DNA of 61,944 bases, filler included, from Circinaria calcarea (Eukaryota), in assembly GCA_051942165.1 (NCBI GenBank). It is 3 parts of 3 records of this genome, joined end to end, with 100 filler letters (N's around TTAATTAATTAA, not from the genome) between each part and the next. Parts side by side here need not be neighbours in the genome. Positions count along the whole stretch, not along the records: positions 41,369 to 61,944 come from JAVECS010000172.1; 2 more parts are not named here. One strand, written 5' to 3'. The stretch's first letter is position 1, and each line of letters begins with the position of its first letter. Under the pieces are notes generated by a model. That model was not told the origin of the DNA. It saw only the letters and a program-made list of their open reading frames with translations, and searched no databases. Shown in pieces: positions 20,590 through 61,396 of this stretch. A program made the translations under genes and the position numbers.

Positions 20590-20689
20590 NNNNNNNNNNN
20601 NNNNNNNNNNNNNNNNNNNNNNNNNNNNNNNNNTTAATTAATTAANNNNNNNNNNNNNNNNNNNNNNNNNNNNNNNNNNNNNNNNNNNN
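20590..20689. other. Artificial contig-joining linker
   Basis: 44 N + TTAATTAATTAA (stops in all six frames) + 44 N. Confidence 0.97.
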
Positions 20690-41268: not shown

Positions 41269-41368
41269 NNNNNNNNNNNNNNNNNNNNNNNNNNNNNNNN
41301 NNNNNNNNNNNNTTAATTAATTAANNNNNNNNNNNNNNNNNNNNNNNNNNNNNNNNNNNNNNNNNNNN
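41269..41368. other. Artificial contig-joining linker
   Basis: 44 N + TTAATTAATTAA + 44 N. Confidence 0.97.
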
Positions 41369-42652
41369 GCCAGTACTATTGAAGCTGGAATGAGGAAGAG
41401 AAATTTGATAAAACAAGTGTACTGCTAAGTTAAATATGTTTGTTTCGGCACCTACCTACCAAGACCTCAGACCCTTTTCAATATCCCAGTTACTAAGCAT
41501 ATGCCACCAGCTGAAAGATGTCAATTTGTGCGTTGGGTGGTTAAAGCATGGAAAGAAAACCAGAAAGCTCGTATACAGCGGCATAGCCAGAGGAAGCTTT
41601 TTTCCGAACAACGACAGGCCAAGAGAAGCAGTGAAACGTTTGAAATCGCAGCAAGAACTCCACACAATGGGATGAATGATATACCTCTTCGAGATATAGC
41701 CAAGAAAAAGACTGATAATCATAATTCGTGTGGGGATTGATCGTGTCCATAAGCTTAAGCTGGACTGGATATTGATGGCGTTGGGCTGGCGAGACGGGCA
41801 AAAAGCTTGAAGAGTACGAGGGATTCGGATTTCAAGGCCGACCGGGAAATCGAAGAGAGCAGCCAGCCTTCCGGAGCAAAATTGGATCAGGTAAAGTAGC
41901 AAATTCTGGTCATTATAGCAATCGATCCGAAACCATGCAATAAGGAGCTAATACGTAAGCTCGACTACATTGAAAGTTTCAATAGCAATACCTCCACCCT
42001 ATGCCCTCTGGGTGTCACTCTCATCCCCCTATTCACCCCGGGCGGCCTGGATTTGACATCCTACCCCAGAGGGCCCCGGGTAGGGGCTAGGTGAGGCCTC
42101 TTGAACCGTTAATCTGAGACACCAGAACTATCTAAACATATTATCTTTCCGTCCACTCACCACGTTGTCTCTTTATACTTTTAATTGGAACTCCAAAAGA
42201 TTGTCAAGTCTCAGCAAGTACGCTTGGACCGCGTATGTTCAGCACCGCTGCTCGGGCTCTTATTCAATGCACACGCAATAACGCCGACAAGCAACCAGAG
42301 ATTTTGGGAGAATTAGTCGGTAAGATGACGCATTGAAAAGTTATGTCTGCTGATGATAGCTCAGCTCATATGAGGCATCAAATCTAGAAATCAAGTCCGG
42401 ATGATGGGCTATCGGAGGGGAACGTTTGCGCGAGCTTGAAAGGACATGGACGATAAAATTCCAAGAAGGGGCTCGGAGGGGTTGTCTTCACGACATAATC
42501 CAGTCGGTTGAAATGCCCAACCTTGGGGCAGATGAACTCGGGAGATATATAACAGCGGGGTCGTTTCGGAGAAGGCTCCTAAATTGGCTTCACCTATGAT
42601 GATGTACTGGGGAGATTCCAACTGCGACGTATTATAACCACAGGCCTGGGGA

Positions 42653-43126
42653 TGTACAGAGACGAGATATTAATAGATAGATATTCCTGAGCTGATAAAT
42701 ATGCATAAATCCTAGGAAAATAGATTATATTTTGGCTATACGCCTAACAGCCTTAAGGAGTGCTGATACCACCGCTTCTCTTGCGGGCACCGTGCCTTTT
42801 TCGATCTGATTGGTGAAAAGGGGATAAAAAGTTTTTGCTCGGTAGTTATCTCGCCTTCCTTTTATATCAATAGGCGCTAATTATATCTGGGCATTGTTTT
42901 TAGCCAAGGGCTCTCAGAATAAATCTTGCCCAACGCTTAATCATTCTAATGCGGCTTCAATGCTGAATATGCATGTATCCTGTATATACTACTGGCCGCC
43001 ACGTGTCAGTCCGGAAACTGAGTTGAGAGAAGAGAAAGAAAGCGGCAATGTCAAGAGGTGAGGGATTCTTCATATTGTCTATACTAAACTGCTGCCTCTA
43101 ATATACATGTTTCCCCCCCCCCCCCC
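42653..43126 (-). mobile_element. Possible retrotransposon 3' LTR remnant (42653-43107) with polypurine tract
   Basis: TGTA...TACA ends; on the minus strand G14AAA lies 2 nt before TGTA, and there is an internal TATAAAAG at ~42860; no TSD and no second copy. Confidence 0.35.
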
Positions 43127-43660
43127 TGTCAGGCTCTACGCTTAGGGGGTGGCGATACCTCGTTTAGTTGGCGTCTTGGCGTATAATGAAAACCTTTCAC
43201 TCGCATATTTCTTCTTCTATAATGATTAGTTCTCTGTAAGGGCTCTACCCGAGAACCCCTACGAACCCTACGGGTGAACTATACACCGAGGTCACGAGGT
43301 GTTGGCTTAGCGAGAAAGGTTTTCTTCGCGAAATGTTATACCAGAATTCTTTAGTAATAATTCATACGCTTATGCGAACCCATTGAGCTCATTATCACAC
43401 AGTTTACCGACCCTTATCATAAGATCATTATACTAGCCGTAAAGGATCCTTACATTCTCGCACATACTGCGTATAGCCATCGTATTGCTCGTGCCTCACA
43501 TTACCACATACCTTAGCTTTAGATACTTTTCAAGTAAAGTATTCTACGGCATTACAAAAATATCGAATGTTACTATGGTAAAAAGATATCAAGCAGAGAC
43601 GAGGGATATACTTTCATATAATATTTGGATTTTTTGTCCCCCTAAATTCGTTTCACGGTT

Positions 43661-46600
43661 TTATTTTCTCTCCTCTCGATTCGCCCTCTTTCCCACCCCT
43701 TCCATTTTCATCCCCTCCGCCGGCTTCCCTTTCGCCAGCCCCCTCTGCGGCGTCCAATACTCGTCGTTATCGTCATTATCAATATCATCATCCTCCTCCT
43801 TGTCCTCTCGTCCCCTCTTCTCCTCCTCCTCCTCCTCCCCCCACTCCTCCTCATCGTCAAACTCATCCCCTCTCTTCATCCTAGGGGCTGGGCTTCTCGG
43901 AATCCTGGGCCCTCGGGCACCCCTTACACCATCTGCCCTCAACATTCCCTCCCCCCCCGACGGTACCTCATGCGAATGAACCACGCGCTCTTGGGCTCTG
44001 CGGGCTAGATCATTTTCGCTGTGGCCGCCCCACACGGCTTTTAGATATTTGTCGAAGTCTTTGGACGCGCGGGCGACTTGTTTGAAATGGGAGTCCTTGA
44101 GGTGCGGCGTTTCGGCGACGTTGTATTTTTCTTTGACTTTGTAGGCATCGTATTCGGCAAGGGCGACGGCGGTTTGGAAGGCGTTCCGGATCTGATGGTA
44201 GCGGTCAGAGAGAGCATGAAGCGAGCTGGGTAAGGGAGACGGAGGGGAGAATTGATTTAAGGGCCCAACGTACCTGACGGCCATTCCAGACAGCTCTTTC
44301 GCGCTCGAGTTCTGCAAAGTGCGTGAGAGCGAACCTGAAAATTTCTCTCTTGTCGACTTTCATGTCCTTTTTGTTCTTGATCACATTGTTGATGTGCCAT
44401 CTCCAGATTTCCCGTGTGGCGTCTTCATCGAGGGCGGGATAGTAAAGGCTCATGTGGATACGGGATTTGAATGCTGGATCAATAGTGCCCATGCGGTTAG
44501 AAGTCAGGAAGAGAATCCCCGAGTAATATTCGAGCACGCGAAGGAAGACGCTGACGATGCTGTTCCTTTGCAGGTCAGTCTTGTTGCGTCGTTGGAGGAA
44601 GACGTCTGCCTCGTCAAGTAGGAGAACACAACCCCATTTGTGGGCGAGCTGGAAGGTGGACTTCAGCCTTGATTCCACTTCATCTGCTGTCTCACCGATG
44701 TCTCCTGTTTGTTATAGTGTCAGCAACGATACATGTACGGTTACCTTCTATATTCCACCTCGGAACGGATAGAGAACAGCCATACCACATGTAATAGGAA
44801 ACAGCGGTCGATGAGTATGAGCAGCAATACTTTCAGCTGTTGAAGTCTTTCCGACACCAGGATCTCCATGTAAAAGAACAATAAGTCCTTTACCCTTACC
44901 AGGGATCAGATCAAATTGCGTCTGTTCATCAGGCTGGTGCTCTGAGCTGGCGGTACCCCGGGAGTGATTCCGGACTAAGGCTAGCAAGCTGTCTTTATGA
45001 CCTTTCGGTAGGCACAATGCGTCAAGCCCTGCGTCCAATGGTTGAACTTCAATCACCTTGTTAATGTCAAGCATTGCCCAATTCCGATCACGCAAGACAA
45101 ATCCGATGACCGTAATAGGAAATAGCATGAGGTCTGCCTACTAATTAGAGGAAGTTAGTAGGAAATTTGGTAAATAACGTACCTTCGTCGGTTAATATAT
45201 TAGGATCCTTAAACGAAAGCATTATGTCCTCTTGCTCAGAAATTAAGTCTCGTGCATGTCCAAGATCGAGATCATGGTCTTTGTGAATATAGTCATTATC
45301 ACAGCAACCAGGAATGGTGCAAGGACCGTCGCGATGATGATTAAATTTGGTATCAACCCAGGCGGACTCCTCTTTCGTTTCTCGATTATCCCCTTCGATC
45401 GGTTTCCTTATGCTCAATGCTTTCCTCCAATCCCTATTCTGCTGTAGGCCTAAAGTAAAATCGATGATTACTTGAGAGTCCACCTACGGTAAATGTGTTA
45501 GCAGAGCCATTATTTATCGCATTATTGCGAAATAAAATAGAGTCTTCTTACTTCGTCGCCAGTCCTAATACATTGCCCTTTGTATTGCATATGTGCTACT
45601 TTCGAAAGGCTAACAAATCTCTTTCCACGCTCAATCAATTCTTCTTTCGATGGCATTGGCTTGGATGCTTGTGAGTGACCCCGACATTTCACATCATGAA
45701 ATCTATATGGAAAGACTGTAAGGTTATTTATCGGAACTTCCCCATCATACCAGTGAATCGCGAATGTCTGTTGCGTCGGTCCATAAGTGACACCATCATA
45801 ATCAAATGAGAAGCATTGGACAACGAAGTGGTTACCTTTCCGCGAAGGGGCGAGGTACTGCATATCATCATCGTCGTCCTCGTATCGAAACTCATTTTCT
45901 GGATAAGCGGGAGTGGGTCTTGGGACCCTCGTTCTGTCCCGACGAATCACGATCCGTGGTTCATCTAGATCACTGAGATACTTTCGACCCCCTGCAAAGT
46001 TCAGAACGCGGTATACTTGAGAGCAGTCTGCACTGCAACAGACTTCTTCATCATGGCTAAAAAGATGCCAAAGATCGGTAAAGGCTATCATCTTCAGGGT
46101 GCTGTCTTTGATCTGGCGACGTAGCTCAAATAAGCCTTTCAAGTCAAAGTCGAACAAACTGATCAGAAGACGCAATTCGTTTAATGCTACTTTTGAGATA
46201 GTGACGTCCTCCGCTGGAGAGCTGCTATCTCCCTCGCCTTGAACGGTAATTGGAATTACAGCTTCTCGATTTTCGTCGTTTGCCCCTAGTTGTAGTTGCA
46301 GTTCTTCGGTGTATTTTCTGATCTTTTTTTCAAATTCCATGAACAGCTTGTAAGGTCGAAGGAATACCATTGGTTGATAATCTGGCAGGGTCAGAAACTC
46401 ATCTATTTTATAAGCAGGTTCTTTTCGGTCTCTTGAGTAGATCCTACTAGGTGTTGGAATTGTGAATTTGCCTTCTGTAATCTTCTCGAGAGTCTTCAGA
46501 AGAACAGTGGAGCGAATTCGCACGCGTTCGGGCACGCGCGCCATGAGATCTGGGTCAATGGTAGAGTCTAACCGCCCGTCAGGTTCCTCTGCAGAAAATA

Positions 46601-47429
46601 CTGAAGTATGACGATTTCTCATCCGCCGTCTGGCACTCGGCTCAGAAGACTGCGCGGTGGCGACTTCGATGACATGCCATGGAATGTGTGGTGGGTCAGC
46701 GGTCAAATGTACACTGCTGTCATTACTTCTCCGATCGTCAAATGTCTTAGGCTGGGGAGGGCGAAAGTCCGCCATCGGAATTCTTGCAATTCCCAGAGCC
46801 AAGTTGAAACCACTCATTACTTCCTCGTCTCCAAGAGATGACCGACGAGACCGTGTTGGCGATACCGGTCTAGACATGTCATCACCGTCGTCGCTCTGGT
46901 ACTTCTGATGCTTCTCGATACGAGCTAAGGCTATTTCCAAAGACGCCAGGCGATCTTCGACAAGCCGCACGTACGACTGATGCTGTAACACTCTCTTCTG
47001 TCCCTTCCTCTGACGCTCCTGCAAAGGAGGAAGAGATAAACGCTGTCTGTTATGCTCGTCGACATCGCTTATAAGGTCGAGCGAGTCCTCGCTACTATTA
47101 TCATCAACTTCGGCCTTTTTATTTCCTTTTGTAGTGTTTGAGAGATCTCCACCGACTCCTGATCCTGCATTCTTGGCCTTATCTGAACTTCTCGCTAGCA
47201 GTTCTCCTTTTCCTACAATGATATGGTGTTTAGCTCCTACTTTATCAGTAACAATTAAGGAGTCCAGTGTATCGTTAGGCGCTTCTTTCGGATCTTTGAT
47301 GACATTAAACGAGTCCCCTAAATTGTCTGCTCCAGACGCCAATGTTGGCTGGTAGGTTCCATTCGAGATCCCGCCATTCATATGGGAAAGCTGGCCTGGT
47401 TGTGTGGGGCCGGGAAGCTCGCTCGACAT
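43661..47429 (-). CDS. Large fungal AAA+ ATPase (~1162 aa, DUF7025-type N-terminal region); exons 47429-45552, 45483-45183, 45133-44786, 44704-44274, 44191-43661
   Basis: GKGKGLIVLLHGDPGVGKTSTAE (Walker A), VLLLDEADVFL (Walker B), FLRVLEYYSGILFLTSNR, DPAFKSRIH, WNGRQ/IRNAFQTA; IAFTDLWHLF; four canonical introns, spliced length 3489 nt. Confidence 0.93.
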
Positions 47430-48006
47430 TTCAATCGCTTGTATCAAAGGGCTCCCTAACAATCCACTCCGTGTGTATGTCTTACCACAATGTAAATCAG
47501 TCGCAAAGAGAGAGTAGGCAACAATAAAGCTCATATACGTCAAATAGAACAAGAACAATATGTACAGCAAAGAAGCAGTCGGGGGATAAGAAATGGGGAA
47601 TCCGCGGCCCCCACGACGAAGCCTCGTCTTTTGCGCCCGCGATTGCCTGGAGCTGAGTTCTTCTAGTGGGGTGGGGCTAGTGGACCGCAACCCTGTCATG
47701 TAACCCAGCTTGTTATCCAAAAAGGTGAACGGACTCTACGAAGCGAGGGGAGGGGACCAATTACATGGGCAGAAGGCTTTGCGACAGCTCGAAGAAGCCT
47801 CCAGAGTCTCCTCTTCATCTGCAGGGTGCGGCGAGCACCCAGTCTTTGGCGCTGACACCAGATGTCTGGTCTGGAACTCCCAAAACCTGTGCATCTTTCG
47901 AACAGTTGGCACCTATTCTTGAGGCCATTGACGCAATGTAAACATTTCTGAGGTTATGGTGTAGGTCGGCCGACCACCAGCTTTTTATTACTACGGCAGA
48001 GCTGTC

Positions 48007-50071
48007 ATGACTACTTTGATGCCAATGATTGCCAGTGGAGCTCAACTATCAAACATCCCTGCCGACTTCGTTCAGAACCACCTAGACGCAAACACTCACC
48101 CCGCCTTCGGAGACCCTTCAGCCCATTTCATCATGGATCTTGGACGGTTTGGTGGAGAGGACGAGGAGAAGGCTTTGGCAGATCTAAAGCTCTGGGAAGG
48201 CGCCGATGCGGAGAAAGAGAGACTTTATCAGGCTATAGAAAAGTACGAGCGGAGTGTGAAGACAAAACACAAGATCTGCAGGTCGTTGTCAGAAATTCGA
48301 AAGGGGCAGCATACCTGGGCTGATATCTTGGCCGAAGCAAACAAGGCCACGGAGCAGCACGAGGACAAGAATATCGTGATCAAGTACATGAGGAAGCTTC
48401 GCGATCATGCTGATTCCTTCAAAGACTGGACCGATCTGCTGCCTCAGGGGGATTATTCAGGTGTCATTAGGCAAGTCGACAGCTAATCAAGCGTGTAGCT
48501 CCGGCTAATTGGACTAGTCTCGGGTTTAAGATGGCTTTGACGGCTGCTGCAAGAATGAGCGATGTACATAACATTCTCTTCGAAGTCCTGGGCAGTATAC
48601 CAGAGTACATAAGCAATGCCGAGCGTTACAAAAGGATTTACAAATCGACGCGGAATGTCAAGCTCGTCAAGAAGACAGCATCACTGTACACCACAATTGT
48701 CGTGGCATTGGCGGAGGGTTTTGCATACCTGAGAGAGCGTTCCACTATCGCTCCTGTTAAAGCGTTCTTCATGGGCCAGAGATACCAGAAGAACTTGGAA
48801 GAAACCCTCAAAGCCGTTCGAGCCGCTACAGAAGCCGTCAGAGCTGAAGCAGAACTTTGCCTTCATGAAGTCAGTGCTGAAGGACTGGGGAGAACAATCG
48901 CCAATGAGGACCAAAGTAGGTACGGCAAATGCCCACGGCTATCTCCGGGAAGGCTGATTAGATATTTGTAGGGCGTCAAGACTGTACCGAAGCGCTGATA
49001 GAGAACAGAGAGTCCGACCAGAAGATCTATCAGAAGGTTGAGAGTGTAGACGAGAAGGTGAGCTATTTGACCAGTGCTCTAAATGCAGTATACCGGCAAC
49101 TTCGCAGTAGCCAACTTCTAAATCCAGTATCCAATTTACCAAATCGATTGTATGCTGAGCAAGCCGACACATCGCGGTCTGCTAGTCCTATGGCAATCGC
49201 CAGACATGCAAGCATATCTGTCAAGCAGATTGTCAGGAGTCTAGGCTTCCGCAAAGACGGGCCCTACCGCGACTTGCTAGATCGACTCCAGCTTGGCCAT
49301 TCAATGCCCTTGAATCAACAATCCAGAGCCGTCGACCTGATCAATTCCGAGGAACTGAAGAATTGGCTCAAGGTCACGTCTTCCGATGCGCTTTTGATTC
49401 ATGGTGGTTCTACCGATGATGATACCGAGGAGCCCCTCTCGTTCATTTCATCTAAGATTATCACTACCTCACAAGACCTGGAGCCAATCATAACCATCCA
49501 CTACTTCTGCGGCTTACATCGAGACATGAGAACCGAAAGCGAAACCGGGGGCGACGCTCAGGCCATGATGAATAGCCTGCTTGGTCAACTTCTGACGCAG
49601 GAGAGATACGATTTTGACCTTGCAAATGTTACACGGCACGATCTGGCTTTGCTTGAGGTCGATGACATGAAGACGCTTTGCGTCATGTTTGGAAAGCTCG
49701 TCAAACAGCTGCCTCCAGCGTCTGCATTATTCTGCATCATCGACGGCGTTTCAGCTTTCGAAGACTCCTTGCGGAGTAACGACACTGTCAAGGCATTGCG
49801 TCATCTGGTACGCTTGGCTCGCAGTTCGAACAATGTGTCTTTCAAGTTGTTACTCACATGCGCCGGTGAAAGCCAAAACAGGCGAAGATACGAGATATCG
49901 GAGGGGCAGGAATTGATAATGGAAGAAGAACTCGTCGATGACGAAGGACATGGTTATAACGACGATCTCTTTGACGAAGATATGGCTACTTCAGTCTTGA
50001 ACGAGAGTGAGGAGTACCACGGAGCCAGGACACCGAGGCTACCCCTGGCCGACTACCCAGACGACTTTTAA
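48007..50071 (+). CDS. STAND/NACHT-like protein (~653 aa): helical Goodbye-like N-terminus plus degenerate P-loop domain, no repeat domain; exons 48007-48470, 48518-48915, 48972-50071
   Basis: WTDLLPQGDYSGVISLGFKMALTAAARM; LKNWLK..SDALLIHG, IHYFCGLH, MMNSLLGQLL, LFCIIDGVSAFE, FKLLLT in NACHT order; GC-AG intron 48471-48517 and GT-AG intron 48916-48971 restore one frame (1962 nt). Confidence 0.8.
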
Positions 50072-50775: not shown

Positions 50776-53700
50776 CTATCCAGTCGTTATGAATTTCCTA
50801 GTCGAGGTACACCAATTCAGGTAGTCTGAGAAAAACGCCGTTCTGACCTTGCAAGCCGGATCGGTAAGGAAAAGCAGTTGGGTATCCGCATAACGTTGAG
50901 TGACATCAGCAGGTCGACCTCCATTGGATATGATGAATTTCGAAACCAATATGCTGGCTTGACTGCATGCAGTACCATATGCATTGGAGCCTTCTTTCAT
51001 TGCTGCTTTGTGTATTTGTTCGAATAACGCAAGAAGGCCATGATTGTCTGGGAAGTAGTTGTGATGCTTCAATTTAAGCATTTTTGAGTACTCTCGGATC
51101 AGGCTACACGCTTTCTCGGAGACTTGTTTGCTGCTCGTCGTGTGAACTAGTGTAAGCAGAGGCACAATTATACCCAATGCTAGCTCCTTTGAGTATTGAT
51201 GCTTGATGTAGATCTCCAAAAGCTCCAAGACCCGCGATTTAAAGAGTACCACATTTTCTTTAGCATCTTTTTTCTCCGTTTTCTTGCTGGTTACCTTCTT
51301 CCTTTCTCTGAATACTTTCTCCAGGTGTTTGTCAAGAGCTTCCATTTGCTCATCATTCATGTCTTCGTCCGATGACTCATGCTCATTACTTACTGCAAGA
51401 TCTTCATCCCCTCTTCTGGTACCTAGAGCTTGTGCAAGTTTGGCATCGAAAGCAGCCAGTTCGTCGTCCGTTACTTCAGAATCATCACCACCTTCTTCCC
51501 CACTCCCAGATGACCCATCTGTTTCTGAACCATCGGAGCCATCACCATCAACACCACCATCTATGCTCACTTCCTCAACATCTGACATATCTACATCGCT
51601 CCGGTCTTCATTGGTGGGCTCGAACATCAATGCTTGGCCCACAATGCTTTCGTTTGTCTCAAGAACCTGCACCTATTAGCAAACTAGTTTGACGTAGAAC
51701 AATCTGGGGAATGAAGAACTTACTCTGATCATCGAGTGTAAGCCATCAGCCGTGATGATAGACGTACACACTGAAAAGACCTGCTGAGCGAGTCGCCGAA
51801 ACAAAAGTGAAGGTTTCGACACGAGGGTGAGCAGAATTTCTACTAGAATCTCAGAGCCCTTTTTGTGTGTATCTTCATCTTTGTGCTTTAGCAAGCCTTT
51901 GTAACAATCTTGTAATTCATCCAGCATATTTACTGCATCCGCATCGGCATTGTAAACTTGTAACATGGTAAGGCAATATAATAACTCAAAGGCGTTGAAA
52001 AGATCCTTCTTTGTCTTATCCTCCACCTTCCCTTTAGCGTGGATCTTTTCGAGGATCTTCCAAGCACGTCTTATTTGTTTGTAAATCCTGTCGTCTGTAC
52101 CGAAAGTAATCAATGTTGAGTCACCCAGAGTCTCACGCTTATGTATTATAGACACTATGTCATATGGATAGTTCGAAAGATCAGCTGTTTTTGCCATGAG
52201 GTGAGCCAAAGCAGATGCTATCCTAGATCTGAACATCTCACGAGACGCCTGACTAATGGGGGGTTCGGGAGCCTTCCGCAGACCATCAATGTCTCCCTGG
52301 GTCTCGAAATATGCGTACTTAGCAAGTAAGCCAAGGATCTGTAAAATTACCATGCGGCAGTCGGAGACTGTACTCCCCCTTTCGTCTTGTATCGGCTTAG
52401 ACCGTATGACCATGATTAGGTAGTCAGCAATGACTCGTCTTCTCGCTGAAGCAGCTTTGTCATCGGTTATCTGAGGATGTAGGATCATCTGATCAAATCC
52501 AGGTACAATAGCTTGTACCGTATGAAGTGAAGCTTGATAAATCAGTTTTTCTATTGTCTTTGTCTTCGTAACGATATCAAAGTTGATATAACCGTTTGTG
52601 ACCATTATCTCCTTGATGATAACAGGTATTGAGCTCGGATGGTCTAATACCCTAGAATATATGGACTTGAGGCTCTTCTCGGCGATGCGATGGAGGTACC
52701 TTTCCGGGGAGGCAAGCTGATTGGCAAGACACCGTACGAAGTTCTTCCCAAACAGAACAGGCAAACACTCTGGCGGAGCAGTTTGCACGTATTGCTGGAA
52801 GAGGAGAAATCCCCAGTACTTTCGTTCGTCGGAAGAAGATACGGCGAATAAGATACCTTGTAGAGGTAAGCGCTGAATTCAGTAACGAAGATGGGACTCA
52901 TCATCACTCACTATCCACAGCATCCGCCCATAAATCTGCAAACGTGACTCGCTTGGAACCACTGACATCATTAACCGGTGGTATGTTAAGAAGAGTAGAA
53001 AGCACGATGCTCCAGGCAAAGTGCAACTTCGGAGTCCATGTAGCTTTCTGGGTGACATTGTCGTTGAAGTTTTTGGAGTCTTCCGTGGCTGAAGCCTCTT
53101 TCAATATCATAGCAAGTTTGGAACGTTCCTTACGATTAAGAGGGTCTTCGTGGTGCCATACCCCCTTAGGCTGTTGAATCTCTGGAAAAGAGCTTGACGC
53201 TGTAATCCAAATCGCTATCCCTTCTGGTGTCTTCGCTAACCCACTCGCATGCAACTTCTCAAGAAGAATCTGAGCATAGCCAATGCCATTGGCTTCTTTG
53301 CTTAAGCTCCGAAGGCCCCCAACCAGGACCCACCCACATTCTTCGCGGAGCCATGGTTTCTTCTTTGCTAGGTCGTAGACGAGATCGAGTATATGTTCCC
53401 ACTGTCCGGTATTTCCATCGGTATTGGAAAGAATTCTAGACTTGATGATTGCTTCTGCCCCAAATAATCTGCCGAGGTAGTAATCTCTTTCTTCCTGGGC
53501 TCACATTAGTCTCCACCAATACCCTCTGTGGCATGGGCATCTCACCTGGCCAGACACATTACCACTAATCCGGGTCCGATCTTCCAGAACTTCGATTATC
53601 CCGGGGACATTCGGGAAAGAGCCTTCCAGGTATTCTTTGCCTGGGCCAAAGAGCTGGACCAGAAATTCCGTCAAAGCTACAGAGAAGCCTAGCCGAGCTG

Positions 53701-53908
53701 CTTTGCGACCACTACATAAGCCACGGACTAATCGTTGGAGAATTCTATTCAATTGCTCGATTCCAGGGTGATTCTTGTAGGAGCTTATAGCAAGTAGCGC
53801 TTTGGCGGCCTTCAGGCGGATCTCTTCGTCCTCATTCGCAAGATCTTCAAAGGTTTCAACCGTCTGAGAATTTGCGCTTACTTGCTCCCGGCGTCGCTTT
53901 TTGGACAT
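50776..53908 (-). CDS. POL5: DNA polymerase phi / Pol5 (MYBBP1A family, rRNA biogenesis); exons 53908-53546, 53494-52912, 52856-51724, 51666-50776
   Basis: LQRLVRGLCSGRKAARLGFSVALTE, ERKYWGF, ERYLHRIA, MNDEQMEALDKHL..VF, FKSRVLELLEIY. Confidence 0.93.
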
Positions 53909-55542
53909 GATTTAGAGGTCAACTGTGTTCTGATCATCTACGTATCTCAGAAAAAGTAAAATGATATCCATGTGGCTGCAAACCAGGTAAACAACTTTGA
54001 GACCATAGCTTAGCTCGGCGTTAACACATGCCGAGCCGATAGGGCAGTGCTTAAGGGGTAGGTATTTCCTTGTAGAGGTCCCTAGTTCTCTGTCCGCTTC
54101 CAAAGTAAACATGCGACTTTAATGCTTCTGCTTTTCAAAGGATATGATATCCTCTCCGCGAATCTCAATCTTGATTCGCATTTACCAGCAAATACATTAG
54201 ATCATGACCTGTCTGGGCTATTTCATTGATCTCAACTGCTCCGTGGAACATGTCGATTGCCCAAAATAGTGTTAGATGAGATTCTCTACTATCTTCTTCT
54301 ACGGCCAATGCAGAATGTGGTTCTCAGTTGATTAATACCCTCCCATTGCCTCCATTACGTTCTCCACATTTCTAGAAACAAATCTACCTGCATACTTCTG
54401 ACCTTACTCCTAAACCCCATGACTGTTGGGCATTCTTGCTGGTGAAAACCCAAATTGAGATTGAATTCTCTAGTCAAGTCCGTTATAGAATTACTGCTGA
54501 GCCAGGAAGCTATAACATAAACGTTGTTAGAACATTGAGGGTTAGGTATCTGAGGGGAGGGAAATTGTAGGCTGTACAGACCTACAGGAGACTGCTTGAA
54601 ACCGCGGAGGTTGTGCTTTGGCGGAGTATATATAACCTATACTATAAAAGAGAACGAAAGTTATAGGTATCCTGACACAATTAGCAAAATTCGAATTTCC
54701 TAGACAGGACCCATGGAGATGTCCTGTTGTTTCTTCAGCATCTTCCTTGCTCGTTCCAACTAACTCTACACTCTCCTTTCACCCGTTCACTCGTTCCGCA
54801 GGGCGGAATCGGCCAACCTGTTCAGCTCCAGATGCCTAAGATCGGTGGAGGTCAAAGCTTCAGCCGTATCCATCTCTCTACCATGTGGGGAGCGGCGGCA
54901 TCAGAGCTGGGCTGGGGAATTGTGAAAGACAATCGAGAGGGAACTAGCCATTGGCCTAGATTTCATAAATAATGGCACAAGGCAAAGACTGCCCCACCGG
55001 CCCCTGAGGTAGAAAGCAAGGGAGAAGGGAGAAGGGAGTTTTGCGAGAGGTGAGGGAGTGGAAAAGAGTGAAAGTAGTGTATTATATAGTTAAATGTGTT
55101 TGGTACACTAGCAGTGTATGGACTGCTCCTATAGTCTTCGATGCATCAATCAGTCTTATTCTTCCGTACATGGCGGGGACATTCAAGGGATTTCAAGAAT
55201 TACGCCCGTCAAGCAGACCTCGGCACGCTTGAACATCTCACGCCTCATTCAGATGTACGGAGTCCACCGTGATCTCCATTTGTGGCATCGCAGAGCAGCT
55301 TATGGCATCTGAAATCAGGCCCATGCGATCAAGGTCCTACCAATTGAAACTTTTGAAATTACTACACAGATAGTGATGCGAAGGAATACGAACAAAACGT
55401 GACTATAAGGAGTCCAACATGCTCCGCTCTAAGCCTATACCCGGGTTTAAGTATAATATGGTGTTTGTTCGGGTACCTTCTTGATTTTTTCAGATCGCAA
55501 TTGTAATTGGATGGGAAGCGGGAGACTACGTCATGTTCCACG

Positions 55543-57601: not shown

Positions 57602-59464
57602 ATGGAGTGTTCGTCCCCCTTGGCTGCTATGCAGGCTCAGACGCTACCGTTTGGCAATTGGGGCTTCCGGTTGAATGCACCTACGTCCAATCCACATTGC
57701 GGGGGCAGTGCCAATCTTGGGGCAGGTAGCTTCAACTTCAGGGACCTCAGCATGAACAGGCCCCCGACGGATTACTTTAACATAAAGCCCGTCCGTGGAT
57801 CATCTCCAACATCCAGCCTAGCAGCAGACTTATCCCAAAATTTTCACATTGATCGAAGGTAGGAAACTATGCCCTTGGTCGAGATGGGAAGGAAGCACTA
57901 ACTTGTAACAGTCCACAGTTACCCACCCCGAGACGATCCTTGTTCTCTTCCCACCTCTTAGGAGCGCATACCGGGCGGAGTATGAATCTTGTAAAGCGTT
58001 GATAGTATGGAGGCTTACAAGAGATAGAAAGTACTCTCACACCACCGTTGCCCTCATCCTCACCGGGTCCGGGAAGCGACTCCATGGATATTTCGCCTCT
58101 TCCCCACAAGGTGCCGTTTGTTACAACGCGTATCCGGATCCAATCGCCTACGCCTGAGCCAACCCCGACTACCAATTCGATGGACTACACACCATGCCAG
58201 GGACCTCAGTCACCGCCAGGTTTGGTCAAACCAAATGCTCCAATTGAGTAAGGTCCTCATTTGTCTCGTGTAAGTATAGCAGACTGACAGCCTACAGACG
58301 CAAAAGGCCTGCTATGCTCCGACCGAGTCTGTCCCGCACGAAAGGTCATTCCACCACGGCCGTGTCGATTAGGTCCGCTGGACTCGACAACCAACTCCCT
58401 GCCTTCAAATTCGGCAATGGACCATCGTCTGGCTCTGGATCTCTTATGTCCCTTGAAGAATGCTTCGTCGAATCACCACAACAAACTGCGTTCCTGAATT
58501 CTTCCACGACAGTGATGGGACCTCCCAAATCAAGATTGGCTTTCTCTAACTTAGGTACAAACACTCGCTCAAGCAATTCACCTCTGACTGGTCACATCCG
58601 GAAGCCAAGTGGCCCTACACAACGACCTAGGAAACAGTTCCGTCGATCTCTAAGCATGTTCGAGCATCCTGCCGAAATCATGAAACAGCCAAAGCCTGAT
58701 CAGCTTGAGGACCATTTACAATCGATTATGGACGTTGATGACGCCCCAAAGCTACAGCTTCCCCATTTTGTACCTGAACAGGATGTGATGCCCCGGATTA
58801 CCAAGGAAACAATGATCGACATCCTAGACGGAAAGTACGATCAGTGTTATGAAAAGTCACTAATAATCGACTGTCGCTTCGAATACGAGTACAAAGGGGG
58901 TCATATAGACGGAGCTATCAATTTTAACAACAAGGAGGAACTGGCAAACGAGTTGTTCCAACAAACCTCGTCTCAGAAAACATTGCTCATTTTCCATTGT
59001 GAATACTCTGCGCATCGAGCCCCTATCGCGTAAGGTTTATACCACCCTTCGTCTTGTACAGTACTGATTCAGAATACAGTGCTAGGTTTATCCGTCATGA
59101 AGACCGTGCCACGAATTCTCATCAGTACCCGAAACTGACGTTCCCCGAAGTTTATATCCTGGAGGGTGGATATAGCTCCTTTTTCAAAGATTATCGGATT
59201 CGTTGTTTCCCTCAGAATTATGTCGAAATGAACGATAAGGAGCACTCCACTGCCTGCGAACGAGGTTTAGGACGAATGAAGCAGCAGCGTGGGAAATTGA
59301 GCAGGGCGCAAACATTTGCATTTGGCCAACATAGTCAACCATTAGAGGACAGCCCGACCGCCGTGAATCGGCATTGTGGCGATATCATGATGGGTATGGA
59401 CCTTTCTCTTAACCAACAATTCGACCTTCAGCGAAACCGTGCTAGGCGAATGGCATCCTATTGA
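57602..59464 (+). CDS. CDC25: M-phase inducer phosphatase (Cdc25/NimT/Mih1); exons 57602-57858, 57912-57979, 58028-58247, 58298-59029, 59080-59464
   Basis: IIDCRFEYEYKGGHIDGAIN, catalytic HCEYSAHRAP, YILEGGYSSFF; N-terminal RGSSPTSSLAADLSQNFHID. Confidence 0.96.
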
Positions 59465-60600: not shown

Positions 60601-61396
60601 ATGGACATTGATGACATCCTAGCCGATATCGACGGCCACGGAGAGCCCCAGGAGACGCGCGACTTGCAAGAACTTACCCGTGCCTGGGTAATCGAGAGGA
60701 GTGCCCCAGAAGTACTACCATGGCCCGAATCCTTGATGGGGCGCGTCTTGGAAAGAGTCCGCCAACAGGTCAGCTGCTTGATTAACGATGCTCAGGGCAT
60801 TCGTTTATACTGAAGAGCTAATCCTCGAGGGTTTCCAAAAGATCGAATTGGTCGAGGAGCAAACGGGCGACATGGACCCCAAGACCAATTTCCGTCTCAT
60901 CATCCTCCAAACCGAGCTCGAGCGGTTCAAATTCCTCGTCCGCTCTTTCCTACGTGCAAGAATCGCCAAGGTACCCATGGCTCCTAGACAGGTCGTCTTG
61001 GGAATTTCTATCCTCTCAGCTAACAGCACAATCTAGATTGACAAGCACGCGCTTTACTACCTCACAAACCCGACCCAAAAGGCTCGACTTTCGGCATCTG
61101 AGCTCCAGTACACCACTACGCATCAGACTCTACTCCAAGCTCATTATCATTCCTCGTTCCTGTCCCAATTCCCTACCTCCCTACAACGATTGGACGACAC
61201 GGTCGGCGGCATAGCTATGATTGAGCAGCCCGACGTTGACAAAGCAGTTTTTGTAAGGGTGTTAAAAGATGTCCGAGAGCCAATTGTTATGGATGGGACA
61301 GATATGGATTTCACCATGAAGAGGGGCGATGTTTATGTTGTGAGATGGAGTGCCGTCCGAGACAGCGTCATGGAAGGCGATGCAGAGCTCATATAA
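60601..61396 (+). CDS. SLD5: GINS complex subunit Sld5; exons 60601-60768, 60842-60970, 61037-61396
   Basis: [62 protein letters not shown]. Confidence 0.95.

Follow-up and report, generated by a model that had tools for sequence, protein, structure and literature searches.

We analysed a stretch of 61,944 nucleotides (nt) from Circinaria calcarea (GenBank assembly GCA_051942165.1; hereafter the window), in which two spliced genes are arranged head to head: gene 1, coding for an AAA+ ATPase, and gene 2, coding for a protein with a NACHT-like domain that has no P-loop lysine. We put at about 60% the probability that the pair consists of two separate, intact genes, inherited side by side and served by a common divergent promoter, one coding for an AAA+ remodeller resembling the D1 domain of p97 and the other for a nucleotide-independent scaffold or decoy derived from a NACHT domain. 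Inheritance as neighbours within one lichen subclass is most likely, and co-regulation through the shared 577-nt upstream region is plausible, while the mechanistic roles proposed for both proteins are inferred from what is known of their families. Our best-supported new result is that the family to which gene 2 belongs, a NACHT family with neither a P-loop nor a sensor domain, is large and uniform. The locus offers a lead that can be tested, but it is not a demonstrated system.

The P-loop-less NACHT-like protein and its family

The gene 2 product (653 amino acids, aa) aligned end to end with a 654-aa protein of Xylographa opegraphella (P0001), with 443 identical residues (68%) and a single gap of one residue. 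The splice sites of gene 2, including those of its GC-AG first intron, rest on the alignment with this orthologue: only the junction generated from the GC donor reproduced the orthologue's ...GDYSGV(V/I)SLGF..., while the products of nearby GT donors mismatched it. The protein of C. calcarea itself was not returned among proteins of at least 640 aa, and the deposited model may differ from ours.

The Pfam search of gene 2 returned NPHP3_N above its gathering cut-off and, upstream of it, a DUF7708-like helical region below threshold (coordinates and scores of all features are given in Table 1). No Walker A P-loop was present at the corresponding site, which reads GGSTDDDTEEPLSF. The Walker B site, CIIDGVSAFED, retained the first aspartate and the glycine, but the DE pair was replaced by S..., with a conserved glutamate six residues past the aspartate, so that the sequence departs from the NACHT Walker B consensus hhhhD[GAS]hDE as quoted in the accessible text of PMC12258605. 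No WD, ANK or TPR sensor repeats, nor any other repeat family, were detected in gene 2 with Pfam.

Exon 3 was modelled with AlphaFold2 from 146 sequences, with a mean predicted local distance difference test score (pLDDT) of 83.7 and a predicted template modelling score (pTM) of 0.74, and the model contained a five-stranded alpha/beta core. Past the last core strands the model had a single helix (330-347) followed by a disordered acidic tail up to the stop codon, and the winged-helix/helical arm was absent. The closest structural matches of the domain were ORC4 (Z 13.6), Avs3 (13.6), Cdc6 (13.3), ZAR1 (12.5), NRC2 (11.2), CED-4 (11.0) and Apaf-1 (10.5), with 156-191 residues aligned in each case, and Foldseek was in agreement. 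A sequence search of the PDB with the profile of the gene 2 family yielded only chance-level coiled-coil matches (E 0.67 or higher). The modelled domain is predicted to adopt the nucleotide-binding-domain fold found in signal transduction ATPases with numerous domains (STAND) and in subunits of the origin recognition complex (ORC).

These results agree with a prediction made earlier from the sequence alone (the original prediction), according to which gene 2 has a NACHT-like fold without a Walker A lysine and without repeats. That prediction had also named the domains to be expected in the pair: AAA and DUF7025 in gene 1 and an NPHP3_N/NACHT-like domain in gene 2 were all found, while at the N-terminus of gene 2, where a Goodbye-like domain was expected, the match was to DUF7708 (below threshold). 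In an alignment of gene 2 with its relatives (32 sequences), DUF7708 was matched in 28, NPHP3_N in 21 and Goodbye in two, both weakly (best E 0.02). Because the P-loop, the winged-helix arm and the sensor repeats have been lost, gene 2 cannot itself run the nucleotide-driven switch of nucleotide-binding oligomerization domain-like receptors (NLRs), and its product may instead serve as a nucleotide-independent scaffold, adaptor or decoy.

A HMMER search with exon 3 against 1.84 billion representatives returned 1448 representative clusters at E <= 1e-3, 627 of them at E <= 1e-10, and a search of the protein atlas with gene 2 returned only unnamed NPHP3_N/DUF7708 clusters of Ascomycota. The family alignment comprised 146 members, 144 of which cover the domain. 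None of these 144 had GxxxxGK[ST] at the aligned P-loop site; two matches to this expression occurred among 153 family sequences, both outside the site. The Walker B aspartate (D257) was kept in 140/144 members and the glutamate six residues on (E263) in 134/144, and the near-invariant residues peculiar to the family were F178, C179, H182, Q205, L206, D257, E263 and K291. The longest tail past the core was 127 residues among the 144 members, and in a set of 45 long members, 41 matched DUF7708 and/or NPHP3_N only and four matched nothing, with repeat domains in none. Taken together, the alignments point to a large, conserved ascomycete family of pseudo-nucleoside triphosphatases (pseudo-NTPases), not to a broken NLR. 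The family probably derives from the NACHT domain of fungal NLRs; what it has kept is the alpha/beta core, a helical DUF7708 head and, of Walker B, the first aspartate.

In the literature searched we found no paper describing this family, and none that mentions DUF7025, DUF7708 or AAA_lid_13. According to the accessible text of two NLR surveys of Podospora and Sordariales, proteins were selected on an intact Walker A and/or C-terminal repeats (10.1101/2025.09.29.679196; PMC12258605). Such filters would exclude the gene 2 family, in which none of the 144 members inspected has either. As stated in the accessible part of one of these surveys, most fungal NACHT proteins are now assigned to PF24883 by InterProScan (10.1101/2025.09.29.679196).

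The divergently transcribed AAA+ ATPase

The gene 1 model, with five exons joined by GT-AG introns, is the same as the NCBI protein Q9187_001547 (P0004, 1146 aa), which comes from a metagenome-assembled genome of C. calcarea, with 1146/1146 residues identical. The sole difference lies in the start, which NCBI places at the second methionine, 16 codons downstream; use of the downstream one of these two in-frame starts (47382-47429) would make the gap between the start codons of the pair 625 nt instead of 577. In intron 2 (45134-45182) the third AG (CAG) after a TACTAAC branch site is needed to keep the frame and two nearer AGs are skipped, in agreement with the NCBI model.

Pfam searches on the exons placed DUF7025, AAA and AAA_lid_13 in this order, all above threshold, and precomputed annotations give these three families both for P0004 and for each of the 120 relatives of gene 1 that were listed. 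The Walker A motif, GDPGVGKT, spans residues 816-823, and its K806 (numbering of P0004) was nearly invariant in 112 relatives. The Walker B motif reads VLLLDEAD, with D857 and E858 invariant in the family, and the sensor-1 TSN aligned with the ATN of Cdc48. The arginine of KSRIH aligned with that of GRFD in Cdc48 as arginine finger, while the first arginine of the second region of homology (SRH) fell in an alignment gap. The original prediction of an AAA+ ATPase with complete motifs and a large N-terminal region was borne out in that Walker A, Walker B, sensor 1 and one arginine finger are intact.

The closest solved relatives of the AAA domain were Cdc48/p97 D1, Rix7, Msp1 and the proteasomal Rpt subunits (E 1.8e-14 by sequence and about 1e-12 with Foldseek). 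By its sequence, gene 1 is thus placed as a classic-clade AAA+ ATPase belonging to a DUF7025-AAA-AAA_lid_13 family that extends throughout the Pezizomycotina. Pore loop 1, GDIGET, aligned with KMAGES of Cdc48 D1 and has an isoleucine, and no aromatic residue, at the position where D2-type pore loops carry an aromatic one. Such a GDIG loop is not the signature of a processive unfoldase.

The AlphaFold2 model of P0004 (mean pLDDT 73, pTM 0.71) showed disordered ends (1-117 and 1043-1146), a long helix (120-162), a region of residues ~190-775, including DUF7025, that was folded with mostly high pLDDT, and then the AAA core and lid. In agreement with this, the N-terminal region was conserved over much of its length in 112 family members, with nearly invariant residues from 288 onward. 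The C-terminal tail of the gene 1 model (residues ~1056-1162; 43661-43985) is disordered and highly charged, containing stretches of E, D, K and R. Its conservation in the Xylographa orthologues is only partial, and one of them (P0007) lacks the last 36 residues. By analogy with p97/Cdc48 D1, the product of gene 1 may form a ring, which would remodel or extract client proteins at the expense of ATP, these clients presumably being picked by the large conserved N-terminal region that includes DUF7025.

Linkage of the two genes and competing explanations

Linkage was judged from the source locus tags, and the searches for gene 2 orthologues covered a window of protein lengths and the representatives of 50% clusters. 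Orthologues of gene 1 were found in X. pallens (MMC27_008241), X. opegraphella (MMC26_004912), X. trunciseda (MMC11_002091) and Lambiella insularis (MMC13_001227), 65-71% identical over the conserved part. The gene 2 orthologue of X. opegraphella (MMC26_004913) bears the tag next to that of the AAA gene on one contig of 246,356 bp, and that of X. trunciseda (MMC11_002089) lies two tags from the AAA gene on one contig of 166,722 bp. The X. trunciseda gene 2 model (479 aa) has no N-terminus and starts inside DUF7708, and the intervening MMC11_002090 may be the N-terminal part split off from it. The AAA family, whose very large size speaks against a general coupling, gave 2650 matches among the 8000 candidates scored, of which the best 120 were listed, and among these identity to gene 1 fell to 45% or less beyond five Ostropomycetidae species. 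Neither gene of the pair is a core gene.

More distant relatives of gene 2 (21-49% identity) occurred in Loxospora ochrophaea, Trapelia coarctata, Umbilicaria vellea, Plenodomus biglobosus, a Mollisiaceae species and Xanthocarpia lactea, and for these six no AAA from the same species or contig was present among the best 120 of the 2650 AAA matches. For the closer of these relatives, those of Loxospora and Trapelia (42-49%), a co-inherited AAA should show 50-60% identity and rank sixth. The members of 10 Teloschistaceae AAA clusters likewise included no X. lactea protein next to Q9172_001609, which is a weak negative. No fusion of AAA and pseudo-NACHT was found: all eight long AAA relatives (1513-1926 aa) carried a second DUF7025 stretch and had no NPHP3_N or DUF7708, so that they look like tandem duplications within a gene, not fusions. 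These eight (P0174, P0178, P0215, P0219, P0226, P0253, P0254 and P0272) come from Xylariales, Apiospora, Gaeumannomyces and Lasiodiplodia, and five of them also have two AAA stretches. Two metagenome matches of the gene 2 family (L001, 5633 bp, and L002, 2871 bp) gave no AAA in tblastn searches with gene 1, the relevant flank being cut off or ~1.3 kb long and hence uninformative.

Conserved local gene order is a simpler account of the adjacency than functional coupling, and head-to-head orientation alone is common and no more than expected by chance. The conserved adjacency may be plain common descent, the two genes having probably lain side by side from the last ancestor shared by Circinaria and Xylographa onward. 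Several observations weigh against leaving it at that. The linkage of orthologues, on which the original prediction had made the pairing depend, was positive, with adjacency or a spacing of two tags in all three species in which both orthologues were identified (C. calcarea, X. opegraphella and X. trunciseda), and it was kept even though the paired orthologues are only ~56-68% identical as proteins. Both genes are lineage-restricted members of families with fast turnover, yet the same taxa have retained both. A head-to-head layout with a short promoter in common is also frequent among co-regulated partners, and the negative from the distant relatives of gene 2, drawn from the best 120 of 2650 AAA matches, is weak.

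These observations bear above all on the functional switch between ATPase and pseudo-NTPase put forward in the original prediction. Here the N-terminal region of the AAA+ protein would bind the pseudo-NACHT protein and supply the ATP-driven change or disassembly that the core of the latter cannot provide, so that the DUF7708 head, a possible cell-death or signalling effector, would be restrained, reset or released. The adjacency and head-to-head layout conserved in Xylographa, the similarly narrow distribution of the two orthogroups, and the fact that gene 1 has a complete nucleotide switch while gene 2 has none of its own are consistent with such a mechanism. However, the tests that we ran lent it no support: the six other species with distant gene 2 relatives had no AAA among the best 120 of 2650, the Teloschistaceae clusters supplied none for X. 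lactea, neither fusion proteins nor, on the contig, an S8 protease or another third partner turned up, and the GDIG pore loop without an aromatic residue resembles that of p97 D1 and not that of a processive unfoldase. We therefore consider this switch improbable, though still to be kept in view. A broader version is that lichen-forming and other ascomycetes have a hitherto undescribed split immune switch: a NACHT-derived family would have lost both its nucleotide cycle and its sensor, and in at least one lineage would have entered a permanent head-to-head pairing with an AAA+ ATPase of its own, which would carry out the energy-dependent activation or resetting in trans and so stand in for the STAND switch. 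This version seems to us quite improbable.

Two further explanations concern mainly gene 2. The locus might control heterokaryon incompatibility or allorecognition, the pseudo-NACHT gene or the pair being polymorphic within the species and causing cell death when unlike strains fuse. The gene 2 family is lineage-restricted and derives from the NACHT type of fungal NLRs, some of which control allorecognition according to the accessible text of two studies (PMC4986451; 10.1101/2025.09.29.679196), but gene 2 has no sensor repeat domain, the polymorphic part of the known incompatibility NLRs, and its orthologues are 62-68% identical between genera, unlike hypervariable alleles, making this explanation very improbable. 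It is harder still to credit that gene 2 is what remains of a full NLR in decay, truncated, functionless and heading for loss. The Walker A, the winged-helix arm and the repeats are indeed all missing, but the reading frame is intact over three exons, the full-length orthologue in another genus is nearly equal in length (653 vs 654 aa) with 68% identity, the domain is modelled with confidence (pLDDT 83.7), and the same architecture with the same missing P-loop recurs over the 144 aligned members together with near-invariant residues of their own. This conservation throughout the family largely refutes the idea of a remnant.

We thus favour two separate genes inherited as neighbours, and the pair is of interest in several respects. 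NLR-like proteins form a large but for the most part uncharacterised component of fungal biology, and if pseudo-NACHT proteins regulate NLR assemblies or act as decoys for them, they would represent a layer of fungal immunity that has yet to be explored. Should the conserved AAA+ neighbour prove to be a genuine partner, this would be the first instance in fungi of an NLR-derived protein coupled to an AAA+ remodeller, and the pairing would give a first functional handle on the DUF7025 AAA family, which has thousands of members and no assigned function.

Surroundings of the pair and comparison with known systems

The window is made up of three genome pieces, each of ~20.6 kb, and the pair sits in the last one (41369-61944; 20,576 bp), with the contig end 2.3 kb from the pair. 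The length of this piece is the same as that recorded for the contig of P0004. The joins consist of N runs at 20590-20633, 20646-20689, 41269-41312 and 41325-41368, paired as 44 N with 12 bases in between, and since these runs separate the pieces, the DNA to the left of 41369 is unrelated to the contig of the pair.

Table 1. Coordinates of the gene pair, its domains and motifs, and neighbouring genes (positions along the window)
Feature	Position	Strand	Details
Gene 1	43661..47429	-	5 exons: 47429-45552, 45483-45183, 45133-44786, 44704-44274, 44191-43661; 1162 aa; GT-AG introns
DUF7025 (PF22942)	45693..46100	-	E 1.6e-19; 70.4 bits vs cut-off 27; inside large folded N-terminal region
AAA (PF00004)	44439..44879	-	matches on two exons, E 2.8e-6 and 5.4e-10; split by intron 3 (44785-44705)
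Walker A (AAA)	44844-44867	-	
Walker B (AAA)	44604-44624	-	
Sensor 1 (AAA)	44493-44507	-	
Arginine-finger region (AAA)	44454-44468	-	
AAA_lid_13 (PF23232)	44033..44432	-	fungal AAA+ lid; E 4.2e-14 in exon 5, 0.0052 in exon 4; split by intron 4 (44273-44192)
Shared divergent upstream region	47430..48006	.	577 nt between start codons, read directly from the sequence
Gene 2	48007..50071	+	3 exons: 48007-48470, 48518-48915, 48972-50071; 653 aa
Gene 2 intron 1	48471..48517	+	GC-AG boundary, donor GCAAGT
DUF7708-like helical region (PF24809)	48525..48857	+	E 6.5e-4; 20 bits vs cut-off 25, below threshold
NPHP3_N (PF24883)	49337..49861	+	E 4.4e-7; 30.7 bits vs gathering cut-off 24.8
Former P-loop site of gene 2	49391-49444	+	reads LLIHGGSTDDDTEEPLSF; no lysine
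Walker-B-like stretch of gene 2	49727-49765	+	LFCIIDGVSAFED
POL5 (DNA_pol_phi)	50776-53911		Pfam; 3' end at 50776, gene 2 stop at 50071
Rhodanese-domain open reading frame	58248-59033		downstream of POL5
SLD5 (GINS complex), C-terminal part	61037-61396		downstream of POL5

With POL5, a rhodanese-domain gene and SLD5 present there, the right flank of the pair consists of housekeeping genes. Several claims of the original prediction about the locus could be checked here: the two intact, spliced, head-to-head genes were both recovered with their start codons 577 nt apart, and POL5 as a neighbour was confirmed by its DNA_pol_phi match, while the debris resembling transposable elements on the left flank was not found, with transposon-family matches in none of 14 open reading frames (41412-44008) and no repeats of at least 20 nt. 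Among the genes of the pair's contig that Pfam can name there was no protease or other candidate third partner, and elsewhere in the window there was no second copy of either gene family.

The fungal NLRs that combine NACHT (NPHP3_N) with Goodbye-like or DUF7708-type N-termini, as described in the accessible text of Dyrka et al. 2014 (PMC4986451) and Wojciechowski et al. 2022 (PMC9815663), are nearest to gene 2, which shares with them the NPHP3_N match above threshold, the predicted STAND/ORC-type fold, a putative helical N-terminal domain, the first aspartate of Walker B and the sequence blocks FFCG..H and SL..QLL. Unlike these NLRs, the gene 2 family has no Walker A (0/144), carries a Walker B of the form D-G-h-S-x-x-E where the accessible part of PMC12258605 gives hhhhD[GAS]hDE, and has neither the winged-helix or helical arm nor WD, ANK or TPR repeats. 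In NWD2/HET-S of Podospora, following the accessible text of PMC4344463, an NLR-related gene lies directly beside a putative partner gene, as observed here, but that partner is a pore-forming effector linked by an amyloid motif and not, like gene 1, an ATPase.

The AAA+-like domain of Sir3 (3te6) and ORC subunits were among the structural matches of the gene 2 domain, and Sir3 and the ORC4/ORC5-type subunits offer an analogy in which an AAA+/STAND core is kept as a scaffold after nucleotide binding has been lost. Sir3 is not known to bind nucleotide. Neither Sir3 nor the ORC subunits have a detectable sequence relationship to gene 2, and their partners and cellular role differ. In the plant RRS1/RPS4 pair both members are NLRs, unlike the present pair, and bacterial IetAS combines an AAA ATPase with a protease, for which the contig of the pair has no counterpart. 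Gene 1, for its part, shares Walker A, Walker B, sensor 1 and one SRH arginine with p97/Cdc48 D1 and other classic-clade AAA+ proteins, and resembles p97 D1 further in a pore loop without an aromatic residue. Unlike p97/Cdc48, it has a single AAA module. Ahead of this module lies an N-terminal region of ~600 residues, DUF7025 included, that is specific to the family, and behind it come AAA_lid_13, which is confined to fungi, and a tail that is charged and disordered.

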